Source: a virus. From it: a stretch of 64,000 nucleotides of DNA. The stretch lies in IMG/VR virus record IMGVR_UViG_3300045988_183746. One strand, given 5' to 3'. Below, piece by piece: positions 2,477 to 59,664 of the stretch (positions within the stretch are counted from its first letter, which is position 1; the number at the start of each line of letters is the position of its first letter). The notes under the pieces were generated by a model. That model worked only from the letters and a program-made list of their open reading frames with translations. It searched no databases and was not told the DNA's origin. The position numbers were made by a program, and so were the translations under genes.

Positions 2477-2484
2477 TATCTTTG
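2477..2484 (+). promoter_or_regulatory. Bacteroidota -7 promoter element TATCTTTG upstream of 2529 gene
   Basis: TAnnTTTG consensus about 45 nt upstream of the ATG. Confidence 0.5.
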
Positions 2485-2528
2485 TATCAGAGAATTAAAG
2501 AGATATGTAACCAATAGACCTAAAGAAT

Positions 2529-4313
2529 ATGGAATATATGAGACCCTTATTTGAGAATATGACTACCGATGTAAACCAATCAGCAAAAATCGGAGATTAC
2601 GGTATCCATATTGGTGGTGCACGCAAGGAGCAAGTAACCGGCAGAAGTACCAAAACGTCGGATAAAGAAGGACTGGTAAAATTTACACACCCATTCTGGC
2701 TGCCTGTGGGTTATATGGTTGATCATCTGGATCATGTAAAAGTTAATCCGTACTACGAAGAATGTTCAAACCGCAACAAGGTCGGTGATGGGAAATATTG
2801 CATTATCTACCGGAAAGGCAGATATGACCGTATTATCAAATTCGGCTATACTGACATGACAGAAGCCGTGAATGCTCTTCCGACCGAATTTGTTGATTCG
2901 GTAATAAAAATAGGTGAGTCTGAAGGGGCTTACTATCTTTATAAGATCTTGAAAACTGCCAAGGAGAGATTGACAGTCAAGTCCGGATTTGCCACAGCAG
3001 AAGAGGCAAGGCAATATCGGGCTGAGAATGCGCTTTCTTTGCTTGAATTCAAGTTCGTCGCACCGGAGTTGCCGCATCTGAAATCAATCGAGCGTACCGG
3101 AACAGATTACCGCAATGGTAAGAACATTACCGCAAAAGATCTTTGCGATATATTCGGATTTCCCGGCATTGAATTTGGGAATTGGCTGACACAAAAGGAA
3201 CGTCAGGCGGTGCTGAATTATGCTTTTGACGCATTTATGGATTTGGCACACGTCACCGGACTGCCCTACCGTGCCATGAGTTTTAACGGATTGTTGGCAG
3301 CTGCGTTCGGAAGCCGTGGCAAAGCAAATGCGTTGGCTCATTTTGAATCAGGCAGATATGTTTTCAACCTGTCAAGACTGAAAGGCGCAGGCTCCTTGGC
3401 GCATGAGTGGTTTCACGCATTGGATAATTTCGTAGGGGCATCCGCTGAAGGTATCCGGCTTTCAAGAAACGCCAAAGGGCTTATCTATGGTAATGAATCG
3501 GGTATTTTTGCTACCGACAGATATAAGACCGAATGCGATGAAAACTGGAAAGCTGTAGTAACTGAATTCACGTCACTTAGAGACATCATGCGCTTCCGTA
3601 TGACAGAAGTTGACATGAATGAGACAGGCGAAATAGCCCAATTACAGAAACAGGCCGATAGATATCAGAGAATCGTGAAAGAACGCGGGGAGTCTATTCT
3701 GAATGAGCTGAAAGCAGATCACAGCAAATATTACAGACGTGGCGGGAAATCGGCTACTCCGGAGCAGTTGGCAGAGACAGAAGCAATCCTGCAAGAGATC
3801 TATGCAGGGAATCAGGGTGCAGAGTGTATCCATCCAAACCGCTCATTGTATCAACATGCGTGGTATTACCGTTCTTACGAGCAAGTGGAGAAACTTGCAA
3901 AGGTGGTCAAGGCTGTCCGTAATACGGATTACTTTGGAGATAACAAGATGATGTCGAATTTCTCAAACGCTATTTTCTGGAGAGAAAAGACCAAATCAGA
4001 AATTTCCCAAAAGAGCGAGCAAAAGACAGAGGTCAGAAGGGTAAGCACTGATTATTATAGTAACTCCCGTCAGATAGACAGATATCGTACATCCCCATAT
4101 TGGGCAACAACAATCGAGATGGCGGCACGTGCGTTTGGCGCATATGTTCAGGATCGTTTGGAAGAAAAGGACAACAAATCTCAATATCTGGTGCACAGTC
4201 ATCGCGATAAAGAGGGCAGCGAGTTGAAGGCATACCCAAGCGGTGAAGAAAGAGCTACCATAAACGCTCATTTCGACCATTTGTTTAAGCAGGTGAGAGA
4301 GTTGTTTGAGTGA
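2529..4313 (+). CDS. Zincin-like metallopeptidase domain protein (HExxH), possibly anti-restriction/polyvalent-protein-associated
   Basis: 594-aa ORF containing LAHEWFHALDNF (HExxH) in a helical context; no signal peptide; a promoter motif lies upstream. Confidence 0.6.
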   Translation: MEYMRPLFENMTTDVNQSAKIGDYGIHIGGARKEQVTGRSTKTSDKEGLVKFTHPFWLPVGYMVDHLDHVKVNPYYEECSNRNKVGDGKYCIIYRKGRYDRIIKFGYTDMTEAVNALPTEFVDSVIKIGESEGAYYLYKILKTAKERLTVKSGFATAEEARQYRAENALSLLEFKFVAPELPHLKSIERTGTDYRNGKNITAKDLCDIFGFPGIEFGNWLTQKERQAVLNYAFDAFMDLAHVTGLPYRAMSFNGLLAAAFGSRGKANALAHFESGRYVFNLSRLKGAGSLAHEWFHALDNFVGASAEGIRLSRNAKGLIYGNESGIFATDRYKTECDENWKAVVTEFTSLRDIMRFRMTEVDMNETGEIAQLQKQADRYQRIVKERGESILNELKADHSKYYRRGGKSATPEQLAETEAILQEIYAGNQGAECIHPNRSLYQHAWYYRSYEQVEKLAKVVKAVRNTDYFGDNKMMSNFSNAIFWREKTKSEISQKSEQKTEVRRVSTDYYSNSRQIDRYRTSPYWATTIEMAARAFGAYVQDRLEEKDNKSQYLVHSHRDKEGSELKAYPSGEERATINAHFDHLFKQVRELFE

Positions 4314-4366
4314 GGTCTAAGCATCCGGCACGGTTAATAGCCGTGTCGGTGTTCCCAGTTGTGTCC

Positions 4367-4390
4367 GGACCCCGACCATCGGGCTCCTAT
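4367..4390 (+). terminator. Hairpin element GGACCCCGACCATCGGGCTCC-TAT (family 2 palindromic element) downstream of the zincin gene
   Basis: Near-identical to the element at 53066-53089 and similar to the one at 51270-51293. Confidence 0.45.
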
Positions 4391-4514
4391 GTGTTAGTGC
4401 CTGGTGCGCTTCAATGAGAGAGTCTGGGTTACCACTGTGTGATATTACACCTAATATTCTGTTTGTCATATTGTTATAAATGAGTAAATTTGTATAGATA
4501 AAAAATCAAATAGT

Positions 4515-5108
4515 ATGGATTTAAAAAATATAGCAGCAAATTTTAATTCATTCAGCAGGTTACTGGACGATGAAATCCGGTCAAGAATTCCTGAAAGTGG
4601 CCAGATTGATATTGAACCGGAAGATAAATGTGTGTTCCACGATGATAATGACGATCGTCCGGAACACAGAATCGTCAAAGCCGTTTTTTTATCATCAGAC
4701 GGCACCGGTTACGGACTGATAACAGAGGACGAGTATTGCCGTGAAGCAACGGTCTGCAGTGCGGAGTGTTGTTTGTCCATTGATGACAAATACAACATCC
4801 TGAGAGCGGTAGATGATAAAACCAAACCATATGGAAAAACCCAAAAGCCAATGGTATGTCTGGGGGTCGTTGTTGGCAGACCGATTAATGGTATCTCCCT
4901 GAATGGACTTGAATATTTGCTTGACGAGGATGGAGAAATCGAGATTTTTCCGTCACTTGAAGAAGCACATCAGGTACTGATAAACGGTGGAGTCTGGGAA
5001 GAGGATTTGGACGAATTTGAATACCGAAAGGTCATGGAGTGTCCCAATTGCAAACAACGGACATTCGTCCACCTGAATGAGAATGTAACAGGATGTACAG
5101 ACTGTTAA
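4515..5108 (+). CDS. Hypothetical protein with C-terminal CxxC...CxxC zinc-ribbon
   Basis: 197-aa ORF ending in CPNCKQRTFVHLNENVTGCTDC. Confidence 0.55.
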   Translation: MDLKNIAANFNSFSRLLDDEIRSRIPESGQIDIEPEDKCVFHDDNDDRPEHRIVKAVFLSSDGTGYGLITEDEYCREATVCSAECCLSIDDKYNILRAVDDKTKPYGKTQKPMVCLGVVVGRPINGISLNGLEYLLDEDGEIEIFPSLEEAHQVLINGGVWEEDLDEFEYRKVMECPNCKQRTFVHLNENVTGCTDC

Positions 5109-5510: not shown

Positions 5511-6938
5511 ATGGATGTAACTTTTGTATCCGTAGCTGTATTGCTACTTTTGTTGTTGTTGTTTGCTTCTTATGTCAAGACTTCACCGAACATCGCCATG
5601 GTGATTTCAGGATTAACCAAAAAGCCCCGATATTTGGTGGGAAAAGGTGGATTCCGTGTACCGTTCCTCGAAAAGACAGACAAACTGTATCTGGGGCAGG
5701 TTACTGTGGACATCAAGACCAAGGAGGCTATTCCCACAAACGACTTCATCAATGTGAAAATCGACGCTGTAGCCAAAGTGCAGGTTGATATGTCCGATGA
5801 AACCTTTGTCTGTGCCATTAAAAACTTCCTGAACGTCGGTCCGGCAATCATTGCACAAGAAGTTCAGGATACCTTTGAAGGTAACTTACGTGAATCTGTG
5901 GGAGCAGTTTGTCTGAAAGAGTTGAATGTGGATCGGGATGCCTTCTCTGATCAGGTTCTTGCCAAAGCAACGAAAGACTTGTCTACCCTTGGTCTGAAAG
6001 TGCTTTCCTGTAATATCCAGAACATCAGCGACGAGAATGGATTGATCAAGGCCTTGGGTGCAGATAACACTTGGAAAATCCGTCAGGATGCCGCCATCAC
6101 CAAAGCAAATGCCGAGAAAGCCATCGCTATTGCAGAAGCCAATGCAGCTCAAGAAGCCAACGATGTAAGAGTATTAAGCGAGACAGCTATCGCCGAGAAA
6201 AACAATAGTCTGGAGATTCGAAAAGCCGAACTGCAAAAGTCTGCTGACACCAAAAAGGCAGAAGCGGATGCTGCTTACGAAATACAGAAACAGGAGCAAC
6301 AGGCAACCATTTACCAAAAGACCATCAATGCTGAAATCGAGAAAACCCAACGTGAACAGGTTCTTTCTCAAGAGAAAATCAAAATCAAGGAGAATGAACT
6401 GACTGCCGAAGTGAACAAACAGGCAGATGCACATAAATACGAGGTGGAGAAAAAAGCAGAAGCGGAGCGATACGAAGCGGAACAAAAGGCACAGGCAGAA
6501 GCAGCCAAATATGCCAAATTACAGGAAGCCGAAGGTATCCGTACCGTCGGTGAAGCCAACGCATCAGCCGCACAAGCCATGTTTATCGCAGAAGCGGAAG
6601 GTCTGGAGAAGAAAGCTGATGCTTATGAACGATTCGGGCAGGCTGCCATTCTGGACATGGTTGTTAAGATTCTGCCACAGGTCGCAGCCGAAGTTGCCAA
6701 ACCGATTTCTTCCATCGACAGCGTAAATATCTACGATGGTGGTGTGGACAGAGTTTCCGGAAACGTCCCTGTTGTACTCAAACAGACATTCGACACAATT
6801 GAGTCGGCTACAGGCGTAAACCTAACTGACATTGTTCGCGCTAAGACCATCACTGCCAAGACAGACCGTAATATCAACATTTCTGGAGACTTGATTGGAG
6901 GTCGTAAAGAAACAGCGGAAGAAGAACCACATAATTGA
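5511..6938 (+). CDS. Flotillin-like / SPFH (band 7) domain membrane protein
   Basis: N-terminal TM helix (VAVLLLLLLLFASYV), an SPFH-like region, then a long Ala/Glu/Lys-rich coiled-coil (AEKAIAIAEANAAQEAN...) typical of bacterial flotillins (YqiK/FloT-like). Confidence 0.8.
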   Translation: MDVTFVSVAVLLLLLLLFASYVKTSPNIAMVISGLTKKPRYLVGKGGFRVPFLEKTDKLYLGQVTVDIKTKEAIPTNDFINVKIDAVAKVQVDMSDETFVCAIKNFLNVGPAIIAQEVQDTFEGNLRESVGAVCLKELNVDRDAFSDQVLAKATKDLSTLGLKVLSCNIQNISDENGLIKALGADNTWKIRQDAAITKANAEKAIAIAEANAAQEANDVRVLSETAIAEKNNSLEIRKAELQKSADTKKAEADAAYEIQKQEQQATIYQKTINAEIEKTQREQVLSQEKIKIKENELTAEVNKQADAHKYEVEKKAEAERYEAEQKAQAEAAKYAKLQEAEGIRTVGEANASAAQAMFIAEAEGLEKKADAYERFGQAAILDMVVKILPQVAAEVAKPISSIDSVNIYDGGVDRVSGNVPVVLKQTFDTIESATGVNLTDIVRAKTITAKTDRNINISGDLIGGRKETAEEEPHN

Positions 6939-7244
6939 TAGACTAGTTAACCCTCTCCTAATTTCATTAAGGTTTCATTCCTGAAATGGGATGCTGGAAT
7001 ACATATATGCCGGACAACTGGATGTGCAATGTTGTCCGGCATATTTGTTATCAGAGACCTACAAAAGGTCTCTTCTGTAGCCCGGATGTACAACACGGAA
7101 TACACCTTGGCTTTTATTTTTGTCTAATGTAGAATGACGGGGAGTACAACAATAAAATACATGCACGCTATATTGGAAAAGTTCGTTCTGTGCCGTCTTC
7201 AGGATTCATTCCTGGATGCGCGATAGATATAGGGATAGATTTTG

Positions 7245-7252
7245 TATCTTTG
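7245..7252 (+). promoter_or_regulatory. Bacteroidota -7 promoter element TATCTTTG
   Basis: TAnnTTTG motif 37 nt upstream of the ATG at 7289. Confidence 0.45.
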
Positions 7253-7288
7253 TAATAAAGATAGACAACTGATAATCAACATTTAATT

Positions 7289-9971: not shown

Positions 9972-10203
9972 TCCGGTTATCCTAAAGTATCCAGTTCGTC
10001 CGGCATAGCTTGGCGATTGGATACTGACCGGAACCAGATCCACTGGTTCCTAAAAGCAGCACAGTTTCTATATTGAATGGGACGCTTCATTGGCAAAGTC
10101 TGTGTCGTTCCCTAAAAGTGTACTATCCTGCCCACAATTAGATTATCCTGTAGTTAATTTGTACCTTTGAGTATTGAAAATCAGCTGATAACAAAAAAAG
10201 GCT

Positions 10204-10993: not shown

Positions 10994-11188
10994 CGATATA
11001 TTGGGTGGGAAACCGCCTGATCCTTTGTTGACCTTGACCGGGAGCAGCGGCTTCCGGGTTATTTTCCGTGAAGGGAGGGCGCTTAAATGGAGAAGTATTA
11101 TCCCTAACCTTACACACAGAATACATTTAACAATGTATATATCAAAAGATTAAATAGTTATCTTTGTATAAAGATAATAGGAAAGGCA

Positions 11189-12821: not shown

Positions 12822-13232
12822 ATGGGAGTCAAACTTAAGTTCCGTCCCTCTTCTTCCAAGGGGAAGAAAGGATCAGTCCATTTTCAGTTTATTTACAGGA
12901 ATGAAATAAGGCATGTCCCGTCCGGATACAATGTATATCCGGATGAATGGCATGATTCTTTTGCATGTATTGTCATACCTGAAAATACAGATTCTGAACG
13001 GAAAGAATATCTGAGGGAGGCGTTCAAGGACTTATCAGAAAAGTTAGCCACTTTCAAAAAGGTTTTTGCTGCACTGAAATGGCAGAAGCGGATTATACCG
13101 TCGATCAGATCATTGAATTATGCTTCAAACCGGCGGCAAACTTTCACTTCCTTGCTTTTGCTCACAAGCTGGTCGGTGAGACCAAACTTGCCGGCAAGAC
13201 AAGAACGGTCGAGACATACCAGACCGCTTTGA
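12822..13232 (+). CDS. Tyrosine recombinase, N-terminal arm-DNA-binding domain ORF (frame 3; part of a frameshifted integrase)
   Basis: MGVKLKFRPSSSKGKKGSVHFQFIYRNEIRHV... resembles the N-terminal arm-binding domain of Bacteroides integrases. The protein-like sequence ends around 13078, where the frame 2 ORF begins. Confidence 0.55.
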   Translation: MGVKLKFRPSSSKGKKGSVHFQFIYRNEIRHVPSGYNVYPDEWHDSFACIVIPENTDSERKEYLREAFKDLSEKLATFKKVFAALKWQKRIIPSIRSLNYASNRRQTFTSLLLLTSWSVRPNLPARQERSRHTRPL

Positions 13233-14029
13233 ACAGTTTCGAGCGGTTCTTGAAAGAAACAGATCGTAACGGGCTGGAAGAGATGGGTAGCGGGCTGGTT
13301 GGTAAATACGGTGAATGGCTCCAGAGAAACGGCATTTGCCTTAACACGATGTCGTTCTATATGAGAAATCTGCGGTCAATGTACAATCAGGCTGTTGCCA
13401 AAGGTGTATTGGAACAACAGCAGCCTTTCAGCAATGTCTATACCGGTTCCAAGGAGGTGGTAAGATTTGCCGTTCCTTTGGATACAATCAGGAGAATACG
13501 CGACTTAGATCTGTCCGCTGATCCCCGTCTGGATTTTGCAAGGGATATTTTCATGTTCAGTTTCTATACCCGTGGCATGTCTTTTATAGATATCGCCAAC
13601 CTGAAAAAGGAGGATTTGAAAAACGGTTTCCTGACGTATCATCCCAGAGAGTCGAACAAGATACTGTCAATCAAATGGGAAAAGCCAATGGCAGACATCG
13701 TAGCCAAATACGCCAAGCATGAAACTCCTTTTCTGTTGCCTATTATCAGCGAGCCAGTGAGTGTCAACAGGAAAGAATACACAAATATACTTCACGCCAT
13801 CAATACAAGGTTGAAAAGAATAGGGCTGATGCTAAATCTGGATGTGCCCTTACAAACAAATATGGCCCGGCACGCATGGGCTTTGACAGCCAAGAACATG
13901 AACATACCCATACCGGTTATCTGCGAAGCTCTGGGGCAGAATTCCGAGAACACCACTTTGAGCTATCTGGCGACGATTGAAACGTCTCAGTCAGACAAAG
14001 CGAACAAGAATATTCTTGACTCCCTATAA
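13079..14029 (+). CDS. Tyrosine recombinase / integrase, SAM-like plus catalytic domains (frame 2)
   Basis: 316 aa with the catalytic-region signature HxxR (NMARHAWAL) and the C-terminal Tyr in TLSYLATIE. Fusing it with the upstream ORF gives about 402 aa, typical of Bacteroides integrases. Confidence 0.8.
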   Translation: MAEADYTVDQIIELCFKPAANFHFLAFAHKLVGETKLAGKTRTVETYQTALNSFERFLKETDRNGLEEMGSGLVGKYGEWLQRNGICLNTMSFYMRNLRSMYNQAVAKGVLEQQQPFSNVYTGSKEVVRFAVPLDTIRRIRDLDLSADPRLDFARDIFMFSFYTRGMSFIDIANLKKEDLKNGFLTYHPRESNKILSIKWEKPMADIVAKYAKHETPFLLPIISEPVSVNRKEYTNILHAINTRLKRIGLMLNLDVPLQTNMARHAWALTAKNMNIPIPVICEALGQNSENTTLSYLATIETSQSDKANKNILDSL

Positions 14030-14130: not shown

Positions 14131-14239
14131 TAGGTATAGCCTGCTTAAATGAAGAAGCCTGAACCCTATTCCTTGCCTATTTATATCTATCTGATTATGT
14201 GTAATGTAGCTACAATTTAGTATCTTTACATATCAATAA

Positions 14240-14528: not shown

Positions 14529-15614
14529 ATGAAATCAAACAAACATATAGTGACCGGTGGCAAGCCGGTCCTGCCTGAGATTCTTTTTCCGGATACTCAT
14601 CTGACATTCGCCGATTTTTTCTGCGGATGTGGTGGACTCTCTTTGGGCATGATTCAGTCTGGCATGAAATGTGTCTCGGCAATGGATTTTTCGCCTGAAG
14701 CCATCTGTACATACTGGCTGAACCTTTGTGTTAAAGGATGGAGTCATCTTTGGATCTCTCCCGAGAATGAAAAGGGAGCCAAGACTTTGCTGAAGATTCT
14801 AAAGACCGGTGAGACCGCAAACTGGTTCTTCCAACATGAAATCCCCGATAACTGGTTGCAATCGCCCAAACCGATGCCCTGCCTGAACCTGTTCCTGTAT
14901 AGTATTCTGGATTTGGAACCGGAAGAATGGTTGGAAATTATGGGACTTCGTCCCGGAGATATATCGGTCTTTGTCGGCGGCCCTCCCTGCCAGGGATTCA
15001 GCACGGCAAACACCAACCGGAGTGTATTTGACGAACGGAACCAGTTGCCGCTTCGCTATATATACTATGCAAAGGTCTGCAAACCCAACTATGTGATAAT
15101 CGAGAATGTTCCGGGACTGATAACACTAGGCAAGACTAAAGACAAGAAAACCGGCCCGTTTGTCGATTGGATAGCACAGGCTTTTGACGAAGCAGGATAT
15201 GATATGACATACAAAGTCCATAAATGTGAAGAATATGGTATTCCTCAGACGCGCAAAAGGGTCATATTTTGCGGCATACGGAAAGATGCCAACCTACCGG
15301 CCATAGAATTTCCTGAGGGTGAGTATGGCGGGAGGAGCGGTAAACAGCCCGTACAGACAGTACGTGAGGCCATCGGGCACTTGCCTCCTATCAGAGCCGG
15401 AGAGTCGTGGACCGGCGACAAGGTAAAACCCTATGGATATGATGCAGCGGACGGGTATGTCATCTGTCCACACTGTCTTCAATATAATTTGGAGCAACGG
15501 AAAAAATGTATCCATTGCGGTACGTCTCTGGAGAACCCGATTCGAGGGGGTGTCTTTGTAGTTCCCGGCATGGGTGTGATGGCGAATATGACCAAGCCGA
15601 TAAACAGGGTATAA
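14529..15614 (+). CDS. dcm: DNA (cytosine-5)-methyltransferase with C-terminal zinc-ribbon
   Basis: Motif I FFCGCGGLSLG (FxGxGG), motif IV GGPPCQGFS, motif VI ENVPGL and motif VIII QTRKRV; C-terminal CPHC...CIHCG. Confidence 0.9.
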   Translation: MKSNKHIVTGGKPVLPEILFPDTHLTFADFFCGCGGLSLGMIQSGMKCVSAMDFSPEAICTYWLNLCVKGWSHLWISPENEKGAKTLLKILKTGETANWFFQHEIPDNWLQSPKPMPCLNLFLYSILDLEPEEWLEIMGLRPGDISVFVGGPPCQGFSTANTNRSVFDERNQLPLRYIYYAKVCKPNYVIIENVPGLITLGKTKDKKTGPFVDWIAQAFDEAGYDMTYKVHKCEEYGIPQTRKRVIFCGIRKDANLPAIEFPEGEYGGRSGKQPVQTVREAIGHLPPIRAGESWTGDKVKPYGYDAADGYVICPHCLQYNLEQRKKCIHCGTSLENPIRGGVFVVPGMGVMANMTKPINRV

Positions 15615-15997
15615 AGTATTCCCATAATAGCTGGCAAAATTCCGGTGGTCAGGCATCATATAGATCTCCTGATTACCGGAGTTATATTATTCATGATATG
15701 GTTCCAATGTGGACGAGGGTGTGTCAAAACAGAAATGACAACTTCTAAAAGTTACAGATTGTAACGTATAACACTTAAAAGGGTCGTATCAAGCTCTGTA
15801 TGGAGTAATGATACGACCCTTTTGGGGATCTTTTAGGATGCTCAAATTTCAAATTATAAGTTCATCTTTTTAATAATTGAGTTTTGACACACCCTCTTGG
15901 TGTGCGATTAGTTGCTTTTGGCTTAAATGGAAATGCAGGATTCGAGATCTTCTTCCCGATATGCACGTGATATTTTTAACATGAATGTTTATTTAAT

Positions 15998-16005
15998 TAT
16001 CTTTG
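15998..16005 (+). promoter_or_regulatory. Bacteroidota -7 promoter element TATCTTTG
   Basis: About 30 nt upstream of the ATG at 16036. Confidence 0.5.
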
Positions 16006-16035
16006 TGTCAGATAAATAACCAACACTATAAAAAA

Positions 16036-17034: not shown

Positions 17035-17252
17035 CCCATTCCGACCGTCGGTTGCTTGTGAAAGTAGCCGGCGGTGTTTTTCGGATGTATGCTCAGGGCG
17101 ATGCCCCCCACTACCTAACAAACCAAATTCAACTAATCCCGCTTATTTAGGAAAGTACGAGCCTGCTGTTTACATACCATTAAACACCTGTATATCTATA
17201 TATTACACTCATTATAACTATATTTGTAGTAGAAATTAAAACCCCCAGTAAT

Positions 17253-19213: not shown

Positions 19214-19925
19214 GGAAACAATAATATTATGGATGAATATATATATTATCAGTATTGTAATTATCTATATTAGCGAAAATAAAAATTGTATATATTATTA
19301 TACATAGCAAATGAAGTTTTGGGATTTCATTTCTGCTTAATACACTGTTAAAGAAAACAAATAAGCGAATGATATTGTCCATAGTGTAAGTTCTATATAG
19401 ACTTTGCCTAGCGTTTTAACGAGTCATAAGCCAATATGCCATCAAACGGCCATCAAATATTATGCGTTGTATATTAACGGTTTACGATTCGTCAAACAAT
19501 ATGTTTTCTACCTAATATATCCTCCTTATTAATTCTGTATGATGGGCTAAGATCGTTTTATTTGGTAAAAAATAAAATCAGGTGATACTTATATTCTATC
19601 GGCAAGATGTTTTCTATGAATTTTTCCAACAGGCCGTCCCTGTCAGTCATAAGGCCCCTGAATACTATAATCCCTTCCACCTTCCATATCACTTTGCAAA
19701 ACAGCAGAACAAGGGAATAAGGTTGGAATGAAGGAAATAGGTTAAGACAACATACTGATTGCTTCCGTTTTCATGCAGCGTCCCGCATATCCTTTCACAA
19801 TAGCAGGCTGAATCTTATATTCTCCTTTCATCAAAAAACGAGCAGGTACGCAAACTTTCCGTGGCAATTATTTGTATATATAATAAATCACAGGTATTTT
19901 TGCCACAGGATTAAAGAAGACACGC

Positions 19926-20279
19926 ATGAAGACAATGAATCAAATTATTGGCGATAATCTGAAAAGAATCAGAGAATTGTCCGGCTTCACGCAGGAGCAG
20001 ACAGCAAAGTCTGTCGGCATCGAGCGTTCGGCATACAGCAATTATGAGGGAGGGACAAGGGAAGTCCCTTATGATGTCTTGGAACGGATTTCAAATATAT
20101 TCGGCTGTGAGCCTTTCATCCTATTTGAGGATAATATTCAAGCGGACAATGAGATTCTGGCCGCTGCCTTTAGAATCTCCGATTTGGAGGATGATGACTT
20201 AAAGGAAATTGCGAATTTCAAGGATATTGTGAAATCATACCTGAAAATGGAACGGATAGCCCAAAATGAAGCCGAATAA
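19926..20279 (+). CDS. XRE-family helix-turn-helix transcriptional regulator
   Basis: IGDNLKRIRELSGFTQEQTAKSVGIERSAYSNYEGG is a classic Cro/C1-type HTH. Confidence 0.85.
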   Translation: MKTMNQIIGDNLKRIRELSGFTQEQTAKSVGIERSAYSNYEGGTREVPYDVLERISNIFGCEPFILFEDNIQADNEILAAAFRISDLEDDDLKEIANFKDIVKSYLKMERIAQNEAE

Positions 20280-21000: not shown

Positions 21001-21487
21001 TGTGATTATCCACTTCATCGAGGCAGACTGCTTTTCATTGCTTCCTGACATATTCCCTGAATATGAGTATGTGGTTCTGGATGTAGTCTATAATGAGGTT
21101 GCCAAAAACAATAAGACCAAGGGCTTCATTGACAATTACCTTCATTTCTTCCCAAAACTGAAAAAAGAGGAATTTGCGCCCAAGGGGGAATCCATAAAGG
21201 AATACTTCCTGCTGCAACGGACATTGGGAAAAGGGGAAAGCGCATGTATGGTATATTGCAGGGACAATCAGGATGTTTTAGGGAGCAGCAATTTGAGGGA
21301 CATAAATAGCTACTGCCTGGCAAACAACATAACCTATCTGACTACAATCGATTTCCTGTATTACGCCTATTGCCGAAAGAAAATGACAGGGCAGGAATGT
21401 GCCGAATTTATGCAAGCCGTCAATGATGCGGGCAGCAAGCTTCCCATGATTGACATAACCCAATATGTATGCACCGTGCAAATCTGA
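20963..21487 (+). CDS. PIN-like domain protein (putative nuclease/effector)
   Basis: Starts MECRKTKIVLDADVIIHFIEAD (PIN-like N-terminal acidic motif), with a later GKGESACMVYCRDNQD...LTTIDFL region. Begins inside the ImmA 3' end in another frame (ORF track 20873..21487). Confidence 0.55.
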   Translation: MECRKTKIVLDADVIIHFIEADCFSLLPDIFPEYEYVVLDVVYNEVAKNNKTKGFIDNYLHFFPKLKKEEFAPKGESIKEYFLLQRTLGKGESACMVYCRDNQDVLGSSNLRDINSYCLANNITYLTTIDFLYYAYCRKKMTGQECAEFMQAVNDAGSKLPMIDITQYVCTVQI

Positions 21488-42998: not shown

Positions 42999-43518
42999 TA
43001 CGCCATAGGAGCCGACACCGGCTCCTTCCTCCTACTCCGAACAATAAATGGCCTGCATGAAAAAGTTCGAACTCAGGTGCACACAGACATTCAACAACAA
43101 TATAATAGCTTGCTACACAAATAAAAAGTATTTTTGTATAAATCAAAAGTTTAGATTATGAAAAAGAGCAAGAAAAGGCGTAATGCCCCATCCACCCCTC
43201 TGGCAGCATTTCACAAAGGTAGCCGGGATGCGGAGATACAGGCTTTCGGCAAACCGGTACCACGGCACAATGTAGTCACCTCAAAGAAGGTGTATCGTCG
43301 GAATCGCCGGGTAGATTTCGATTGACACGGTTGTCTTCCTTCTTCCACCCGGAGAACCATACTGTCCTCCTATAGATCGTTATTGATAGCTTGAATGAAA
43401 GAGTTTCACTCCCCTATCCTAAATGCTAATATTCTGTATAGGTTAGGAAAACTTATATAAATATACTATATTTGTGATTATTAATGAATTAGAATATTAA
43501 CCATCAAACTTTAAGAAT

Positions 43519-43998: not shown

Positions 43999-44267
43999 TC
44001 TATATTGGAATCCGGACAAGGCAGGCTGACACAGCTTTCCTTGTTCGGCAACAACTCACACAGAGGGGTATCGGCATGTTTTCTTGCCAACGCAGACCGA
44101 CCACGGTCTGCTGAAATATGGGTGAAATATCGCCGATCGTGGGGTATTTATGGTATCCGCAATAATGGAAAAGTCCGACCTGATACTACTCTTTCCCTTT
44201 TGTTTTCCGGAACTATGAAGACTCCCTATATTTCTGTATATTTGCATCATAATCAATGAGATAAAAG

Positions 44268-45676: not shown

Positions 45677-45898
45677 CTGCTAGGGTGATCCGGTCATTCG
45701 GAACACCCTACTCCCCTATTTGCAGAACCTGACCATCAGGTTCTTATCTGCCAGTAATATGGAGTGGCTTTAATGGAAATGTTTCAACCATATAGGGTGA
45801 AAGAGCTTTCTTAATTTCTATTTCATAAACACATTGAATTTAAGTAACTTTGTGTATATCAAATAGATAGATATAATAAAGAACATAATTAAATAGTT

Positions 45899-47539: not shown

Positions 47540-47667
47540 CAAGTATTTTTACCAAAGTAAATGGATTGGCTTCAATGAGAGAGTCACGACCTACTTGCTT
47601 GATATTATAATCCGTTTGGTTTTCTTTTATGTCCAATGTTTTTTATATTTTTGCATAGAATAAAACA

Positions 47668-48144: not shown

Positions 48145-48879
48145 ATGAACCGATTGAAATACAATAATAATAATTGGCACGAAAGAGACAACCACATCTT
48201 TTTCGATGAAGAACCGCATATTTATACCCATGACAGACTAGGTAAGATGGATAGCTGGACGGAAATCATTGCGTCCTATTTTGCTCCTTTCGATAAGGAA
48301 CGGGTAGCCTCATTTGTAGCCCAGAGACGGGGTTGCTCACCGGAGGAACTGATTGCCGAATGGGAACACCAGACCCATTTGGGCACCAAGCTCCATGCCA
48401 ATATCGAAAACTATTTGCTTTCTTTGCCGCATGACGAGTCAGATGTTTTCTGGCAGTTCAAGAATTTCATCACAGAGCATCCGATGGTTCCTTATCGTAC
48501 CGAGTGGACTATCTATGACGAAGAAAGCCGAGTGGCAGGTACAATTGATTCATTGGATTTCCATGTATGTAACCTGATGTTGGACTGGAAGCGGAGCAAG
48601 AACCTGATAGACCAGGATGGGAACGTCATCCGGGATTCCTACAATCATACTATGGGATTGGGAGTACTCTCACACCTCCCGGATTGTTCCTACTATCACT
48701 ATGCCATGCAACAGTCCGGGTACCGGTATATTCTCAAGAAGAATTACGGCATCGAAATCGAAGCCTGTTGGCTGGCAGTGTTCCATCCGACACTCCTTAA
48801 CTACAAATTGATAAGACTCCCCTATCTGGAGGAAGAAGTAAAAGCAGTACTGGCTGAACGTGCTGCCAGATTTAGATAA
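48145..48879 (+). CDS. PD-(D/E)XK-family nuclease (Cas4/RecB-nuclease-like fold, putative)
   Basis: GTIDSLDF ... LMLDWKRSK fits the D...(D/E)xK catalytic pattern; C-terminal YYHYAMQQSGYRYIL. Confidence 0.55.
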   Translation: MNRLKYNNNNWHERDNHIFFDEEPHIYTHDRLGKMDSWTEIIASYFAPFDKERVASFVAQRRGCSPEELIAEWEHQTHLGTKLHANIENYLLSLPHDESDVFWQFKNFITEHPMVPYRTEWTIYDEESRVAGTIDSLDFHVCNLMLDWKRSKNLIDQDGNVIRDSYNHTMGLGVLSHLPDCSYYHYAMQQSGYRYILKKNYGIEIEACWLAVFHPTLLNYKLIRLPYLEEEVKAVLAERAARFR

Positions 48880-49039: not shown

Positions 49040-49322
49040 GATCCCCCTCCTTATAAAGTAGATGCAGGCATTGTGACTGCTCTGCTTATATGAGAATGTA
49101 TGAACCTGAACATTCACCGGAGGCATTTCATTATCTATATCATTATAATACAGCATTTTAGTATCTTTGAATATGAAAGATAACCAAAATTAGTCATGGG
49201 AATAGGAAGAGAAAAAATAGACTGGGATGATTTCTTACTAAATGAAATTTTCAGCCCTCATTGAGGGAGCGATGATGTAAGACCGGAAGATAACAGCGAG
49301 TATTCTTGCACTACAGCTAAGT

Positions 49323-50108: not shown

Positions 50109-50330
50109 TTTTTTATATATACGGTTGTTCCATACAAAGTACGGTGCAACCAGTTTCACTCTGCATTCCAATTCTGGCGAAACTTGAACCCAAGTTTCTT
50201 TCAGTGTCCCCTATTTCCCTTTTGCTTATATGGAATAGTAGAACCCTGCCACAGAGTTCTGATATGGTGATATATATTGGGTAATGTGCTGGGATTTCTG
50301 TAACTTTACAATGTTGAAAGACAAAGAATT

Positions 50331-51293: not shown

Positions 51294-51434
51294 GTTACCA
51301 CCTATGGGGATAAAGATTGAGATCCTTTAAGAGGGAGAACTTAAGCATTTGGTTTTGCTTAAATGAGAATGTTTTCATCGCCCACCATTAGATCTTTCTT
51401 ATTGATGTCATTATTTAATAGAACCATATTTATG

Positions 51435-51442
51435 TATCTTTG
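51435..51442 (+). promoter_or_regulatory. Bacteroidota -7 promoter element TATCTTTG
   Basis: The ORF-track start (TTG, 51440) lies inside this motif; the real ATG is at 51467. Confidence 0.5.
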
Positions 51443-51466
51443 TATCAAACGATTAACAATAAACAC

Positions 51467-53008
51467 ATGAGACATTTAACATTAAATCAAGAATACCAAA
51501 ACCAGACAGCGCAACTTATGTTTTCCTTTGGAGAGGAACAGCAATATGATATACCAGTTAGACAGGTTACTACCTGTTCAAAGACTGATACAAAATTATC
51601 TACCGTACCAGAGTACCTTAATAATCTGAGCAAGGACTGTTTTTCTTTAGAAGAGTTGCTTGGCAAAATAAATGCAGATACGGTATATTTTGGTCGTAAC
51701 AAACGTGGACAAATTGCCAATGTTAATGGAAATGTTATTTTTGCGGGCGGTATGGCAAGCCGAATATTGCCCAATGCCCTTTTACGGTCAGTTCCTAATG
51801 CTCTGGCTCAAGGCGAGGGATATTTGGAATTTGACACATTTGTGGTTACTCTTGGCTATTTTGATGATTGTGCAAGATTGTGGAATGCAAAATTAAATAT
51901 TGTACTTGACAAAAAAATGAAATTGAGTTCATTCTATAGTTCCACTTACCCTTATAATTGCACTGAGTTTTCATTGGGGAAATGGTCAATGGTAAAGAAG
52001 CAAAAATTTACAATATACCACTATTTCATTCAGTCCAAAGAGGAACTTACAGGAATTCTTGAAAAGAACGCTCCCTATACTGCGAAATGGGCAGCAGAAA
52101 AAGGTGCTGATGTACGTTGTATGCTCCTTGCTCCTCAAATAGAAATACTTAGCAAAGCCGGATATTTGTTTGCTGACTCATTCATTGAATATGACTCTAT
52201 TTCCGAAGAAAATTGTGTAATTTTCAACAGGCTCTGCCAACAGGGGACAAAACCAAAGGATATATTTAAAACCAGCAAAATGGTGTATTCTATATTAAAG
52301 GGGGAATTGGATCTTGAAATTTGGGATTGCTATCGTAAACTGGCTAAGCTCGGAAAGATTGACGCAGACCATATCCAACAGGCTTACGACCAAAATTTCA
52401 AAAAGGCAGATTTAGAGGGGTTAAACTCCATTCTTAGCAAACAATATGACGGAAAACCAGTGTTTACTTGGAATAGTCTGATGCAGTATTTAGTTAGACT
52501 TGACACCTTTGAAGCAATAGAGAAAAAGGAAGCTTTCATGTTGCTTAATGATTATTTGTCCATGTGCAACCAACTCAAAATGCAGCCCCGCATCAACGGA
52601 GATAGTCTGAAAAGGGAACACGACATTGCAGCACGTAACTGCCGTAACCGAAAAAACAAAATCATGGCTGAACGTATGCAGAACAACTGCGAGAAAATGA
52701 AGAAATACGACTACACAGAGGGAGTCTATTTTGTTCGGGGCATCCGAAGTCACGATGATCTTTTGGACGAAGCCAACCAGCAACATAACTGCGTGGCAGC
52801 GTATGGATCAAGAATTGCCAACGGCTCTTCATACATCTACGTGCTGAGAGAAGTCGCCAAACCGGACAAGAGCTTAATCACCATAGAGCTTTCTCCGGAC
52901 GGACGGAACATCAGACAAAAGTACCTTGCCTACAACCAGCCTGTCCGGAACAGGTCGCAAAGTGAGTTCATAGACCGCTGGATGAAACACAACAGACTGG
53001 TAGGTTAA
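51467..53008 (+). CDS. PcfJ-like domain protein
   Basis: C-terminal ...DEANQQHNCVAAYGSRIANGSSYIYVLREVAKPDKSLITIELSPDGRNIRQKYLAYNQP matches the PcfJ-like HCV-containing domain. Confidence 0.65.
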   Translation: MRHLTLNQEYQNQTAQLMFSFGEEQQYDIPVRQVTTCSKTDTKLSTVPEYLNNLSKDCFSLEELLGKINADTVYFGRNKRGQIANVNGNVIFAGGMASRILPNALLRSVPNALAQGEGYLEFDTFVVTLGYFDDCARLWNAKLNIVLDKKMKLSSFYSSTYPYNCTEFSLGKWSMVKKQKFTIYHYFIQSKEELTGILEKNAPYTAKWAAEKGADVRCMLLAPQIEILSKAGYLFADSFIEYDSISEENCVIFNRLCQQGTKPKDIFKTSKMVYSILKGELDLEIWDCYRKLAKLGKIDADHIQQAYDQNFKKADLEGLNSILSKQYDGKPVFTWNSLMQYLVRLDTFEAIEKKEAFMLLNDYLSMCNQLKMQPRINGDSLKREHDIAARNCRNRKNKIMAERMQNNCEKMKKYDYTEGVYFVRGIRSHDDLLDEANQQHNCVAAYGSRIANGSSYIYVLREVAKPDKSLITIELSPDGRNIRQKYLAYNQPVRNRSQSEFIDRWMKHNRLVG

Positions 53009-53089: not shown

Positions 53090-53221
53090 AGCTTATAAAA
53101 GGATAGGAAAGCTTAAATGAAAGAGTAGGTATCATCCCCTATCCTACTATTCCCTTTGGCTATATTTCGTTATGAGAGACCATTTATATATCTTTGTATC
53201 AAAGAATTAAATCAAACAAAT

Positions 53222-54622: not shown

Positions 54623-54703
54623 CCCCTAATCTGGTGACATTTGGAAATAAGCATAACGAACACAGAAAGAACGCAACCTGAAACTTTGCGATTTAGTTAT
54701 ACC

Positions 54704-55386
54704 GGGAGTAACTCCCTAAAAATGGTGTCCGCTTCAATGGTAAAGTAGGGTTGTAAGTTAAAATCAAACCTCTTTACTCATTATGTAAGTGTCTGAAAAA
54801 GAATTAGTATCTTTACATCAGTAAAGAAAATCAAAGACAATATGGAAGAATTTAATATTCACGAAGTAGCAGAGGAAAACAATCTGGATGTGATTAGTAC
54901 CACAACCGGGAAAAATGGATATCCACAGTCGGTTAGATATGCAATCACCGGTTTCCCTAATTTTTCAGAGGCAGAGAAATTGGCCGAGAAATACGGATTG
55001 CGTATCACTACTTTCTGGAAAAAAGCAGGTTGGCAACTCTATGTCAGAGACCGCAATACGACATTCGAGCCGATGGGCATTTCAGCCGAAAATTATGGCG
55101 ATGATTACATGGCATTCGATTCAAGCAGTGCGGAATCGTTTTATGAAGACGAAGTGAAACCATTGCTGGATGACATCAATAGCCTTGAAGACTTGGAGAA
55201 ATTTGTGTCTGGCCGCAAAGAATTGCTTGACGAGATCAAGAGTATCGACGAAACCCAATTGGTAATAGCCTGCCATGGGCATTACTATGAAACGGTAGAT
55301 AGGGAAACAATGGAATGGTCGTTCGATTCGAAAACATATGTTATCGGAGTTATCAAAGACTAATAATTAAGCATATGAAAACATAT
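54704..55386 (+). repeat. 683-bp direct repeat, copy 2
   Basis: Matches 38652-39334 with a few substitutions clustered near the 3' end. Confidence 0.9.
54842..55363 (+). CDS. Acidic hypothetical protein (duplicate of the 38790 gene; possible ArdA-like)
   Basis: 173 aa, differing from copy 1 at 3 residues (I/V, K/R, N/K). Confidence 0.65.
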   Translation: MEEFNIHEVAEENNLDVISTTTGKNGYPQSVRYAITGFPNFSEAEKLAEKYGLRITTFWKKAGWQLYVRDRNTTFEPMGISAENYGDDYMAFDSSSAESFYEDEVKPLLDDINSLEDLEKFVSGRKELLDEIKSIDETQLVIACHGHYYETVDRETMEWSFDSKTYVIGVIKD

Positions 55387-56802: not shown

Positions 56803-57032
56803 TAGAAACTGGTTTTCCTGCGCCCACTTCCTGTTGAAGTCCGGGCACGGGAAGATCTGAAAACGGAATAATTTTGCCGAAAGCCGCCCCCGGTTTTCTT
56901 TAGGCTCCACAAAAATGGCATTTTGCTTATATGGAAAAGTTGTGGCTTGTTTTGCTTATTCAATTATATATCAGCATATTATGCAACAGAATAATAAATG
57001 ATTATCTTTGTATAAACCAAAAAGATGAAGAC

Positions 57033-57948: not shown

Positions 57949-57987
57949 CACAACCTTTGACAAATAAACAATCAAATACCTCTAGCT

Positions 57988-58611
57988 ATGATATTACCCA
58001 ACATGAGTTACCAGGAGATAGCGACACACCTTTCTTCCGACATGGATGAAGCGTTGGCTTTCTCAAAAAAAATAAAGTTTGCCCGGTACCGGAGCGAAGC
58101 TATTAAGCTGAAACGATACCCGCTGTTTTTTAAGCCGGTAGGATTTACGTCCTCTCAGCATAACAAGTGGTTTATCTTTCCACATGTGAGAAACCGCGCT
58201 GACTTGGTCAGTATCCCTTTTTATGTAGGATGCACATTCACCAAGTACAATCGTCTCTGCCTTTTTATCCAAATGGATCTGGAAGGGGAAAACTCCTCAC
58301 TCAAATTCATATTCACAAACAGGTTCTTCGAGAGATATGCCGACCGAAAAGGCATAACTGGTTCTTTAACTCAAGAAGAGATTGTCTATTCTTTCATCAA
58401 AGAGCTTGGACAACTCGGACTTAGGAATATGGAAAACAAAGATCCGCTTCATGCAATTCTATTCTATGAGACCGGAATGGCATTGGGACATTACGATTCG
58501 GTTGACCGGAACCTGGTGGTATTCCATTCTTATGTGTCGGTTCTAAACGGGCCGAATGATCTGAAGAAAATGCACCACGATTGGCTCTTATTCAGATCCG
58601 TATTCAACTAA
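57988..58611 (+). CDS. Hypothetical protein
   Basis: 207-aa ORF. Confidence 0.6.
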   Translation: MILPNMSYQEIATHLSSDMDEALAFSKKIKFARYRSEAIKLKRYPLFFKPVGFTSSQHNKWFIFPHVRNRADLVSIPFYVGCTFTKYNRLCLFIQMDLEGENSSLKFIFTNRFFERYADRKGITGSLTQEEIVYSFIKELGQLGLRNMENKDPLHAILFYETGMALGHYDSVDRNLVVFHSYVSVLNGPNDLKKMHHDWLLFRSVFN

Positions 58612-58632
58612 TAACTATAAACATTTAATGAA

Positions 58633-59070
58633 ATGACAAATAACCCAATTATATTCAGTTCTTTCATTCATTCAGACTTGAAAGAGAAAATGGATAGATT
58701 TCATTCAATCTACAAGGCGATGGATCAGTCAACCAACGGAAACATCATCTCGTTCCTAATGGATGACAACGGGGAGATTATCGGATATAACTTGCACGGA
58801 AACAAATTGAACAGTCTCTTTTTCGGTCCCTCCCACCCTTGCGTCTGGCATTTCGAGAACAAGGATGTCGTTTCAGTGGAACACCTGCCTGACGGTCGGG
58901 TGATTCGTCGCCTGTTCCGCAGATTACATCCTAGAAAGAAATGCGACAGGTTCCTGACCGCAATTCTGAATGGCACATCCATATCGGAGAAGAGCATCAA
59001 TTACTATACAGCATCATTGTATGATAGCGTCTCACAATTTGTAGAAGAACAGGAAATGGATGCAAATTGA
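58633..59070 (+). CDS. Hypothetical protein
   Basis: 145-aa ORF. Confidence 0.55.
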   Translation: MTNNPIIFSSFIHSDLKEKMDRFHSIYKAMDQSTNGNIISFLMDDNGEIIGYNLHGNKLNSLFFGPSHPCVWHFENKDVVSVEHLPDGRVIRRLFRRLHPRKKCDRFLTAILNGTSISEKSINYYTASLYDSVSQFVEEQEMDAN

Positions 59071-59178
59071 GATAATTTTTCGAATATTTTCAGCTGTTAG
59101 TTTGCTGATTTACAAAAACAAACTTATCTTTACGCAATTATTAACCGACCGGATAACCGGTCACCAAAACCAAATAAC

Positions 59179-59664
59179 ATGAAAGAGCAACATCTTTACA
59201 TCGGTCGCTTGGTCAAAGACGCTGACCAACGTGAAATCGGCGAGAACGTAGTATTTAACTTTACCATTGCAGTCGATTGTGGCTATACCGACAAGCAAGG
59301 ACAATGGGTAGACCAAGCCAAATTTATTGAATGTGCTTTCTGGAGAAGCAAAAAATCCACTTCCGGTATCCGCTACAGTTCAGAAAGACTGGTAAAAGGC
59401 AATCTGGTGCAAATAACATCCCACAGCATGTCAGCACGTGCCTATCAGGAACGCGAGAATGACCAACTTAAATATGACAACAATGGTGATCCCGTATTGC
59501 GCACTGTCCAGACAGCAAAAGTGTCTGAAATTGAGTTTCTAATCGTAGACAAGAGTCGTCTCAGCCAGCAGAATACACAACAGCCTGCACACTCCAATCA
59601 GTCACCAGTCGTTGTGGCACAGTCCGAGACAGCAGACAATATCAAGGATGACTTGCCATTCTAA
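59179..59664 (+). CDS. ssb: Single-stranded DNA-binding protein
   Basis: OB-fold N-terminus (LYIGRLVKDADQREIGENVVFNFTIAV...), a Gln/Pro-rich linker and the acidic C-terminal tail DDLPF. Confidence 0.85.
   Translation: MKEQHLYIGRLVKDADQREIGENVVFNFTIAVDCGYTDKQGQWVDQAKFIECAFWRSKKSTSGIRYSSERLVKGNLVQITSHSMSARAYQERENDQLKYDNNGDPVLRTVQTAKVSEIEFLIVDKSRLSQQNTQQPAHSNQSPVVVAQSETADNIKDDLPF

Follow-up and report, generated by a model that had tools for sequence, protein, structure and literature searches.

The DNA considered here is a stretch of 64,000 nucleotides from the IMG/VR virus record IMGVR_UViG_3300045988_183746 (hereafter the window, meaning the whole stretch at its full length), and the subject is a 57-kb array of small genes within it together with the Bacteroidales element that carries this array. 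The six-frame list of open reading frames (ORFs), reduced by a greedy non-overlapping call to those of at least 55 aa, gives 69 ORFs on the plus strand between 2477 and 59664, and these cover 71% of the bases. The minus-strand ORFs inside the array are short and mostly overlap plus-strand ORFs, the transposase excepted; this DDE transposase, an insertion sequence (IS) that has entered the array, is the sole convincing minus-strand gene, and the one-way strand bias reported in a preliminary description of this DNA is thus real. Both GC skew and AT skew are positive over the entire array, and the cumulative skew climbs steadily between 2 kb and 58 kb, changing direction at either end. The GC content is 40-48% in most 2-kb intervals with a mean of ~42%, and no tRNA genes are found in the window. 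In the copy of the array in Parabacteroides merdae CE91-St3 the protein numbers span GKH73434 (SSB) to GKH73508 (LPD1), so that 75 coding sequences are implied there. The features of the window are collected in Table 1.

The genes of the array share a promoter module. There are 86 copies of the -7 box TAnnTTTG in the window, compared with 58 +/- 8 in shuffled sequences, and on the plus strand this box stands 15-80 nt upstream of the ATG in 22 of the 69 genes, whereas random placement gives 3.3 +/- 1.7 genes (2000 trials, maximum 10 genes). In addition, a second conserved box with the consensus GCTTNAWTGRNRWNGT lies at a fixed distance of 61-63 nt upstream of the -7 box. The pattern GCTTNAWTR-N(55-80)-TANNTTTR has 17 strict matches, all of them on the plus strand and all 85-87 nt in length, compared with 0.38 +/- 0.65 in shuffles, and a profile made from 16 copies finds 8 further full-length copies, each directly upstream of a gene (nhmmer). 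The conserved intergenic motif is therefore present in 24 copies in the array, with one more at 63645. The promoter regularity noticed earlier proves to be stronger than was claimed, because the enrichment of TAnnTTTG is accompanied by the second box at its fixed distance. In the 65 nt that precede the box, folding is on average better than in shuffles (mean z -1.4 over the 25 modules), with a tendency towards a GC-rich hairpin; these hairpins are probably terminators of the preceding unit.

The module is not confined to the window. It is also found upstream of the genes for a second SSB (SSB2) and a DHH phosphoesterase, which lie to the right of the window (contig L014), and in a relative of ~70% identity the orthologous SSB2 and DHH promoters retain both boxes, the spacing and the 5' leader, while the sequence of the spacer has diverged. 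The module thus has the signature of a putative regulator site kept in phase with the promoter; since the spacing is fixed and both boxes are kept in the relative, a single DNA-binding factor would control all units as one regulon. A scan of the species-representative genomes (596 Gb) with the strict pattern yielded 46 scattered single hits, against ~22 expected by chance on a rough estimate, and because such single hits are at about chance level the module appears to be private to this element family. Moreover, the module at 63645-63744 means that the regulon extends to the right of ssb and rep. The modules also correct the gene list: the 66-aa ORF at 36842-37042 would be no real gene, given the module at 36897-36997, and that at 56924-57023 implies that the next gene truly starts at 57033 (111 aa, as called in contig L001). 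A candidate for the factor reading the GCTT box is a 195-aa ORF (22745-23332), the middle part of which resembles by eye a sigma-70 region-4/LuxR-type helix-turn-helix (HTH), although no HMM match is obtained at E<=1.

Table 1. Features of the window in order of position, with the evidence for each.
Feature	Coordinates	Strand	Evidence or remark
Group II intron	1-2129	-	RT/maturase ORF 302-1564; domains V-VI 189-263; D1-D4 1939-2056
Co-directional array	2399-59664	+	69 ORFs of at least 55 aa in ~24 units headed by promoter modules
Module, degenerate distal box, fixed spacer, TATCTTTG -7 box	2399-2496	+	ATG 2529; nhmmer 3.7e-7, outside training set
LPD1 + LPD5 polyvalent-protein-type protein, HEWFH (HExxH) zincin-type motif	2529-4313	+	PF18796 5.5e-23, PF18799 3e-8
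Module	4404-4505	+	upstream of 4515
SPFH/Band-7 flotillin-like membrane protein	5511-6938	+	Pfam Band_7 6.6e-17, Flot 3.8e-8
Module	7164-7262	+	upstream of 7289; nhmmer 2.8e-5, outside training set
Module	10080-10181	+	upstream of 10204
Module	11077-11177	+	upstream of 11189
Tyrosine recombinase, Bacteroidetes Phage_int_SAM_5 type, inside array	13079-14029	+	PF13102 1.4e-15; weak Phage_integrase match
Module, just 3' of recombinase gene	14139-14239	+	upstream of 14240
C5 cytosine DNA methyltransferase (Dcm)	14529-15614	+	Pfam DNA_methylase 3.2e-36; PADLOC MTase_II 5e-52
Module	15919-16018	+	upstream of 16036
Module	17138-17236	+	upstream of 17253; nhmmer 1.9e-4, outside training set
XRE-family HTH regulator, own promoter	19926-20279	+	Pfam HTH_3 1.3e-10; hairpin/palindrome in 19806-19925
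ImmA/IrrE (M78) metallopeptidase, CapP-like	20266-21000	+	Pfam Peptidase_M78 8.3e-14; PADLOC capP 5.8e-25
176-aa ORF, earlier called 'PIN'	20957-21487	+	sole match PADLOC PDC-S70 6.5e-5
Module	23697-23797	+	upstream of 23829
N6-adenine methyltransferase-SNF2 helicase fusion, 1006 aa	24735-27755	+	N6_Mtase 8.8e-12, SNF2-rel_dom 1.1e-6, Helicase_C 5e-8
Module	27844-27939	+	upstream of 27953
IS transposase (DUF772 + DDE_Tnp_1_6), interrupting array	31642-33297	-	Pfam 1e-35, 1.2e-22
Module	33436-33537	+	upstream of 33554; nhmmer 7.8e-5, outside training set
Module	34931-35025	+	upstream of 35042
DUF2786 + DUF7168 protein	35287-36060	+	Pfam; phrog_421 2.8e-26
Module	36897-36997	+	upstream of 37033
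Protein with C-terminal acyl-carrier-like domain	37033-37641	+	Pfam PP-binding 1.6e-6; phrog_5934 8.9e-7
Direct-repeat copy 1, 689 bp	38646-39334	+	promoter module + 173-aa acidic ORF 38790-39311
UvrD/PcrA-type SF1 helicase	40158-42590	+	UvrD-helicase 3.4e-74, UvrD_C 1.6e-67
Module	43387-43485	+	upstream of 43519
Module	44164-44251	+	upstream of 44268; nhmmer 5.6e-5, outside training set
Module	45765-45864	+	upstream of 45899
Module	47567-47666	+	upstream of 47668
Probable PD-(D/E)XK-type exonuclease	48145-48879	+	phrog_298 'exonuclease' 1.4e-17; Pfam DUF3799 just E 0.21
Module	49082-49177	+	upstream of 49323; nhmmer 9.7e-6, outside training set
Module	50222-50319	+	upstream of 50331; nhmmer 0.002, outside training set
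Module	51355-51454	+	upstream of PcfJ gene 51467
PcfJ-domain protein	51467-53008	+	PF14284 4.6e-22
Module	53108-53209	+	upstream of 53222
Direct-repeat copy 2, 689 bp	54698-55386	+	173-aa ORF 54842-55363
Module	56924-57023	+	nhmmer 1.3e-5
ssb	59179-59664	+	Pfam SSB 5e-7; TIGR00621 2e-9
Rep3/RepB-type initiator, convergent with ssb	59761-61002	-	Pfam Rep3_N 8.5e-5; NCBI 'RepB family plasmid replication initiator'
Iteron field	61114-62441		~22-nt CCCCACAGNTGRTGAYATTA-like repeats, both orientations
Module beyond rep/iteron block	63645-63744	+	strict match

Both ends of the array were recognised correctly in the preliminary description, except that the right one is not an end. On the left, the group II intron is supported by Rfam RF00029 (189-263) and RF01999 (1939-2056) on the minus strand and by the Pfam families RVT_1 and GIIM for its reverse transcriptase and maturase. 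It is carried by most copies of the element and missing from some; in the intron-less contigs L008, L011 and L013 the match to the window begins at 2130. Its insertion point lies in a 555-bp divergent region between hipB and the first gene of the array, ~270 nt upstream of the module of that gene. On the right, ssb stands next to a convergent Rep3_N-type initiator gene and the iterons, which comprise ~12 copies of the ~22-nt repeat, with close-set copies (23-32 nt) at 62319-62441, repeat families D1-D4 and D6 and inverted pairs I1-I9; a Rep3 initiator beside direct repeats is the arrangement of an iteron-type Rep3 replicon. The array does not end at ssb, since small plus-strand genes restart at 62665 and run to ~+85.6 kb in other contigs.

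All ORFs were searched with hidden Markov models (HMMs) as a concatenation with X linkers, and NCBIfam, PHROGs, PADLOC and PDB sequences were drawn on besides Pfam. By these searches the protein named earlier as a zincin peptidase was confirmed to have LPD1 and LPD5 domains and the HEWFH motif; it also matches NCBIfam CLCA_X (3e-44) and the giant phage polyvalent PHROGs 616 and 30335, and the N6-methyltransferase-SNF2 (MTase-SNF2) protein, the UvrD helicase and the orphan Dcm methylase were likewise found to be what they had been called. For Dcm no nuclease partner was detected, the adjoining 332-aa ORF having no PADLOC, Pfam or PDB match. For the PD-(D/E)XK nuclease the support is indirect and comes from the match to an exonuclease family (phrog_298). 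The recombinase inside the array bears the NCBI name 'tyrosine-type recombinase/integrase'. PADLOC gave generic methyltransferase matches and scored UvrD against GajB and ImmA against CapP, and it found no complete defence system in the window. Metabolic or phage-structural families, which according to the preliminary description would have spoken against its reading, are matched by none of the ORFs in Pfam or PHROGs, and no match to an anti-restriction or structural category was obtained in PHROGs.

Polyvalent proteins of conjugative elements and phages are said to have been described by Iyer and co-workers in 2017. The LPD1/LPD5 domains, the HExxH motif and the combination of N6-methyltransferase with SNF2 helicase are like those of polyvalent proteins and of MhgA (PMC8102008), but here the domains are split over separate genes (594 and 1006 aa) and are not joined in one giant protein, MhgA of the Bacteroidales GA1 integrative and conjugative element (ICE) being 1659 aa in length (PMC8102008). 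A second comparison concerns the XRE gene, which overlaps the M78 metallopeptidase gene, has a third gene after the pair and carries a palindrome at its own promoter. The XRE/ImmA-type (ImmR/ImmA) switch controls ICEBs1, and CapH/CapP are regulators of the cyclic oligonucleotide-based antiphage signalling system (CBASS). The gene arrangement is like that of both these systems; unlike them, the XRE-ImmA pair has only a putative link to the array, and its own promoter is without the GCTT-box module. The inverted repeat CCGTGGCAA...TTGCCACAGG surrounds the -7 box of the XRE-ImmA operon at 19806-19925. It has the look of an operator for autoregulation and differs from the GCTT-box module. Of the XRE/ImmA/PIN module proposed in the preliminary description, the XRE and ImmA members were confirmed by HMM but PIN was not: the 176-aa ORF has no Pfam or PDB match, its AlphaFold2 model is unusable (pLDDT 38), and its N-terminal 'IVLDADVII' is PIN-like by eye only.

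The remaining proteins are largely without relatives. About 50 ORFs have no family match even at permissive thresholds, permissive Pfam scans of 20 ORFs gave nothing credible, and the 332-, 626-, 176- and 244-aa ORFs found no match in PDB sequence searches. The duplicated 173-aa acidic protein had been called ArdA-like, a name that found no support: no Pfam ArdA is found at E<=1, nothing in NCBIfam and no PDB ArdA at E<=10, the AlphaFold2 model is weak (pLDDT 63.6), and Foldseek gives no match at E<=0.001. A search of ~5.8 billion protein clusters recovered only three diverged homologues of it, with 58-49% identity; a more distant relative of the gene likewise lies within an all-plus array of small ORFs. 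Nor is there any match in the window to the ArdA, KlcA, PsiB, Ocr or Acr families. As raw figures, 36% of the ORFs have a pI <5 and ten have a pI <4.5.

The window proteins exactly match entries of P. merdae CE91-St3 (GKH73433 Rep to GKH73508 LPD1) and entries designated 'MULTISPECIES [Bacteroidales]', and the element occurs in thousands of human gut metagenomes, as there are 8987 index blocks that list Rep and 6617 that list the 197-aa ORF. In contig BQNZ01000003.1 of P. merdae CE91-St3 the window corresponds to about 452.9-516.9 kb. Sixteen loci from other assemblies have 99.9% identity to the window over 5-15 kb, although they represent far fewer than 16 independent sources and two pairs share a contig. 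The loci differ from one another in the presence or absence of the intron, in a 1052-bp insert at 55944 that carries two extra modules (contigs L002 and L006) and in the loss of 16 kb between the 689-bp repeats. The two repeat copies are 98.5% identical (self-BLAST), and the 16-kb block between them holds UvrD, the exonuclease and PcfJ. Because the JGI contig L004 has one 689-bp copy and lacks the intervening 16 kb, the block has apparently been gained or lost by recombination between the duplicated cassettes.

The contigs that carry the element are 203-911 kb in length, unlike a circular replicon of plasmid size, and in one P. merdae assembly the window lies well within such a contig, of 660 kb. 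Since it is carried within contigs of 0.2-0.9 Mb, the element is likely to be integrated and not a free plasmid, as far as contig structure can tell. An apparent chromosome junction in contig L013 was considered as an att site and rejected, for it falls inside hipA and is probably a chimera or a rearrangement. By megablast, the segment 40000-62000 has no near match in PLSDB, nor in INPHARED (50,697 phage records); Rep was not found in IMG/VR, Rep peptides are not in the GTDB representatives, and the sole plasmid relative of Rep has 24.8% identity. A known plasmid or phage was rejected on these searches of PLSDB and INPHARED with 40000-62000 and on the searches with Rep, and pMMCAT and pBAC were rejected on their published descriptions. 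pMMCAT is a pervasive 98-kb Bacteroidales conjugative plasmid with a type IV secretion system (T4SS), a 24-kb exopolysaccharide (EPS) locus and Mfa fimbriae (10.1101/2024.04.29.590671). It is like the present element in being highly conserved, multi-species and globally prevalent in gut Bacteroidales, but it is a different element, the tested segment 40000-62000 being without a near match in PLSDB. No published description of the element was found in the literature searched, and this very common element is apparently undescribed.

The left flank in most variants carries on the minus strand hipBA and then a MobA-like gene of 286-298 aa (NF041324 2.4e-35, PF19514 2e-35), ~4-5 kb left of the array and on the opposite strand, which is followed solely by a 111-aa ORF and by no relaxase gene. 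This gene is absent from contigs L008 and L010, the latter being the contig of P. merdae CE91-St3. In the MobA-like protein (L009:4884-5780, L078:2898-3758) the MobA/MobC_2 domain occupies approximately the first 144 residues, and the C-terminal half is unmatched. Further genes of the left flank are a MacB-like permease, an IS and more HTH/HipA genes. To the right of rep there are five small ORFs, an ExoVII-like gene and a second Rep3 gene (minus strand) with ~2.2 kb of non-coding DNA, and, further right, SSB2, the DHH phosphoesterase, a PIF1/RecD helicase, ParA, a possible ParB-like gene and small ORFs to ~+85.6 kb. The block of ExoVII, Rep3, SSB, DHH and PIF1 is conserved in the ~70%-identity relative, while the genes between the SSB2 and DHH anchors differ there. 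Two contigs stop at ~+82.5 to +82.8 kb, which may be the right end of the element. Between ~-9.4 kb and +85.6 kb (~95 kb viewed) there is no relaxase, coupling protein or T4SS, and no oriT was located; a search for such transfer functions, raised by the preliminary description, therefore came down to a lone transfer-related gene, the MobA-like accessory. Two non-coding stretches, L002:570-2763 (2.2 kb, beside the second Rep3) and L014:5260-6748 (1.5 kb, upstream of parA), at which several contigs break, may hold a second origin, a centromere or oriT.

Taken together, the stretch is best read as the long one-directional accessory arm of a widespread Bacteroidales element, with a co-regulated programme of establishment and counter-defence as its most likely function, a reading to which roughly an even chance is given. 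The function is judged the most likely one because the recognisable products modify or process DNA, carry LPD1/LPD5 domains or form an XRE/ImmA switch, and an ORF with an Acb2/Tad1 hairpin domain in the same element, outside the window, speaks for it as well. The element carries a plasmid-type maintenance set, namely two Rep3-type initiators with iterons, two SSBs, ParA with a possible ParB-like protein, DHH, PIF1/RecD and the ExoVII-like protein, and it may be mobilised in trans, as no conjugation machinery is in view. The array consists of ~24 separately promoted units, many preceded by a hairpin, and each headed by a module of ~100 nt, usually with a GC-rich hairpin, the GCTTNAWTGRNRWNGT box, an unconserved spacer of 61-63 nt, the -7 box and 15-55 nt to the start codon. 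The programme would fire from ordinary double-stranded promoters upon entry of the element into a cell or its activation there. While the architecture, the module, the family assignments, the prevalence and the context are direct results of the analysis, we infer the box to be a regulator site, the expression to be early and the family-less ORFs to act against host defences. The array promoters could be under a regulator that carriers possess and naive recipients lack.

A more far-reaching version, in which the GCTT box is a private operator read by an element-encoded factor and the ~25 units fire as one burst at entry or waking, is rather doubtful. Such a burst would be the double-strand-promoter, zygotic-induction equivalent of the Proteobacterial single-strand-promoter leading regions, and in a variant of this single-regulon reading the modules would also serve the embedded tyrosine recombinase as junctions between cassettes. 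Several facts weigh against the establishment and counter-defence programme as a whole. Searches of Pfam, PHROGs and PADLOC gave no known anti-defence family for any of the ~50 unassigned ORFs, so the anti-defence part rests on a minority of the genes; the SPFH/flotillin, the acyl-carrier-protein-like product and the tyrosine recombinase are off-theme, and MTase-SNF2, UvrD and CapP-like proteins occur in defence systems too. Furthermore, the array is 99.9% conserved between samples with few indels and so lacks the fast turnover that arms-race islands often show. The distal box precedes the -7 box by ~80 nt, where a repressor would be unusual, and no oriT, relaxase or T4SS was located in the ~95 kb viewed.

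The preliminary description went further and labelled the array a candidate leading-region anti-defence island. Following Samuel et al. 2024, such an island would be the DNA that reaches a recipient first, with expression preceding complementary-strand synthesis or coming shortly after it. Leading-region genes use the transferred T-strand as template, anti-defence enrichment is reported within the first ~30 ORFs of the region, and hipBA, orphan methyltransferases and SSB are typical contents (PMC11541004); operationally, the leading side is the oriT side opposite the relaxase or accessory genes (10.64898/2026.01.13.699239). As to content the label is plausible, for the array fits an establishment and counter-defence set (two methyltransferases without a detectable nuclease partner, LPD1/LPD5 with HExxH, SSB, UvrD, the exonuclease and XRE/ImmA) and, like the published islands, combines co-oriented small genes, partnerless methyltransferases and SSB with many uncharacterised ORFs, with the toxin-antitoxin hipBA adjacent and a relaxosome-type gene adjoining in most variants. 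The position is another matter. The MobA-like gene, at 4-5 kb from the left end of the array, is oriented away from it. The array would lie on the leading side if oriT were beside this gene, but the gene is missing in L008 and L010. In the F model the transferred strand templates both the tra and the leading genes, and the leading genes point towards oriT, in the same direction as Mob/Tra. If oriT is on the left and the polarity is F-like, it is the sense strand of the array that would be transferred, so that the orientation relative to the sole Mob gene reverses the T-strand-template rule (PMC11541004). An oriT on the right would agree with the orientation but would have to be located past +85.6 kb, leaving the array 26-83 kb or more away from it and outside the first ~30 ORFs. 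The array itself, 57 kb long and >85 kb with its continuation, is far larger than the ~30-ORF enrichment zone, belongs to a probably integrated element in which no oriT, relaxase or T4SS was located, and has no ArdA, KlcA, PsiB or Acr match. Instead of Frpo-type single-strand promoters it has ordinary Bacteroidetes -33/-7 promoters with the private upstream box: single-strand folding of the regions upstream of 20 genes gave no Frpo-like hairpins, the folding z being mostly -1.4 to +2.2 with four at about -2.6 to -3.1 which are short terminator-like stems only, and any early expression would therefore have to use double-stranded promoters. The label 'leading region' is thus unproven, with a geometry awkward for it, and a true leading-region island is considered unlikely.

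Other readings concern cargo, phages and defence. The recombinase could assemble promoter-carrying cassettes at the modules, in the manner of an integron or of a recombinase-associated platform such as rAID-1, and the content would then be general cargo. The array shares with rAID-1 (Ross et al. 2019, 10.1101/471110; PMC12247911) the features that define a rAID, i.e., a tyrosine recombinase, co-oriented short genes and repeated intergenic motifs, as well as the host order Bacteroidales and a very common occurrence in gut metagenomes; a module lies directly 3' of the recombinase gene, the 1052-bp insert with two modules and the 16-kb block bounded by duplicated cassettes are cassette-sized variations, and the gene content between the SSB2 and DHH anchors differs in the relative. 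However, the recombinase is in the middle of the array and not upstream of it, GC is ~42% and not depressed below 41% as in rAID-1, no immunity (SUKH/SMI1) families are present in the window, the units do not fold like attC sites, and ordinary homologous recombination between the 689-bp repeats accounts for the deletion in L004. Moreover, rAID-1 is carried by more than half of sequenced Bacteroidales (10.1101/471110), yet the strict module pattern is absent from species-representative genomes, and the present array is joined to plasmid modules with Rep, Par and SSB. A related Rep-ParA element on a 141-kb human-gut metagenome contig (L022; ParA ~75% identical) does carry immunity-type cargo, with SMI1/KNR4 (SUKH), DUF4261 and DUF7668 genes in a plus-strand array in which the strict module pattern is unmatched, and this relative speaks for cassettes; the platform as an explanation of the whole is nevertheless quite unlikely. 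Alternatively, the array could be the early part, or the part for replication and recombination, of a large temperate phage or of a phage-plasmid. Its many small ORFs on one strand, the presence of SSB, an exonuclease (phrog_298), UvrD, methyltransferases, Rep and ParA, and the match of the LPD protein to giant phage polyvalent PHROGs would agree with this. PcfJ homologues in PLSDB, which amount to only 14 records with 24-66% identity over 12-35% of the protein, are mostly on 90-150-kb plasmids predicted to be non-mobilizable, mostly of Clostridioides, Bacillus, Paenibacillus and Alicyclobacillus. But capsid, portal, terminase and tail families are lacking in the ~95 kb viewed, neither the 50,697 phage records (for 40000-62000) nor IMG/VR (for Rep) holds a match, and a conjugation accessory gene of the MobA type is adjacent, which makes a phage origin highly improbable. 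Finally, the array could be a defence island protecting both host and element, or could have no functional unity, co-orientation merely avoiding head-on replication collisions. MTase-SNF2 is similar to MhgA, a protein of the GA1 ICE connected with ICE exclusion (PMC8102008), UvrD and ImmA score against GajB and CapP, and the monotonic GC skew is compatible with a single replication direction; against this, there is no complete known system and no GajA beside UvrD, the neighbouring 297-, 626- and 332-aa ORFs have no PADLOC match, gene orientation alone can produce skew, and the private promoter module that the units have in common speaks for a unity of function or regulation. Either form of this explanation appears very unlikely.

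If the establishment and counter-defence programme is correct, its interest lies in the host phylum. How mobile DNA enters past the defences of gut Bacteroidales is poorly known, and no leading-region or establishment programme for this phylum was found in the literature searched. The ~25 co-regulated units and the ~50 proteins without family match constitute a concrete catalogue that can be tested, and the conserved box is a signature for finding related arrays as well as a direct experimental handle. The single-burst regulon, if true, would be a rich source of new Bacteroidales counter-defence proteins.

Two minor observations may be added. Outside the window, a 91-aa ORF at L019:3512-3787 (~+79.8 kb) has an Acb2/Tad1 hairpin domain (PF24729, E 5e-6, with 27 bits equal to the gathering threshold) and is a candidate anti-CBASS/anti-Thoeris sponge, judging from this domain match. 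Inside it, the segment 18000-19900 has a GC content of 30% against ~42% elsewhere and contains tiny ORFs only, some of them on the minus strand with hydrophobic stretches; by coordinate arithmetic the 226-kb contig L002 terminates near this segment, which may be a foreign insertion or a variable spot.

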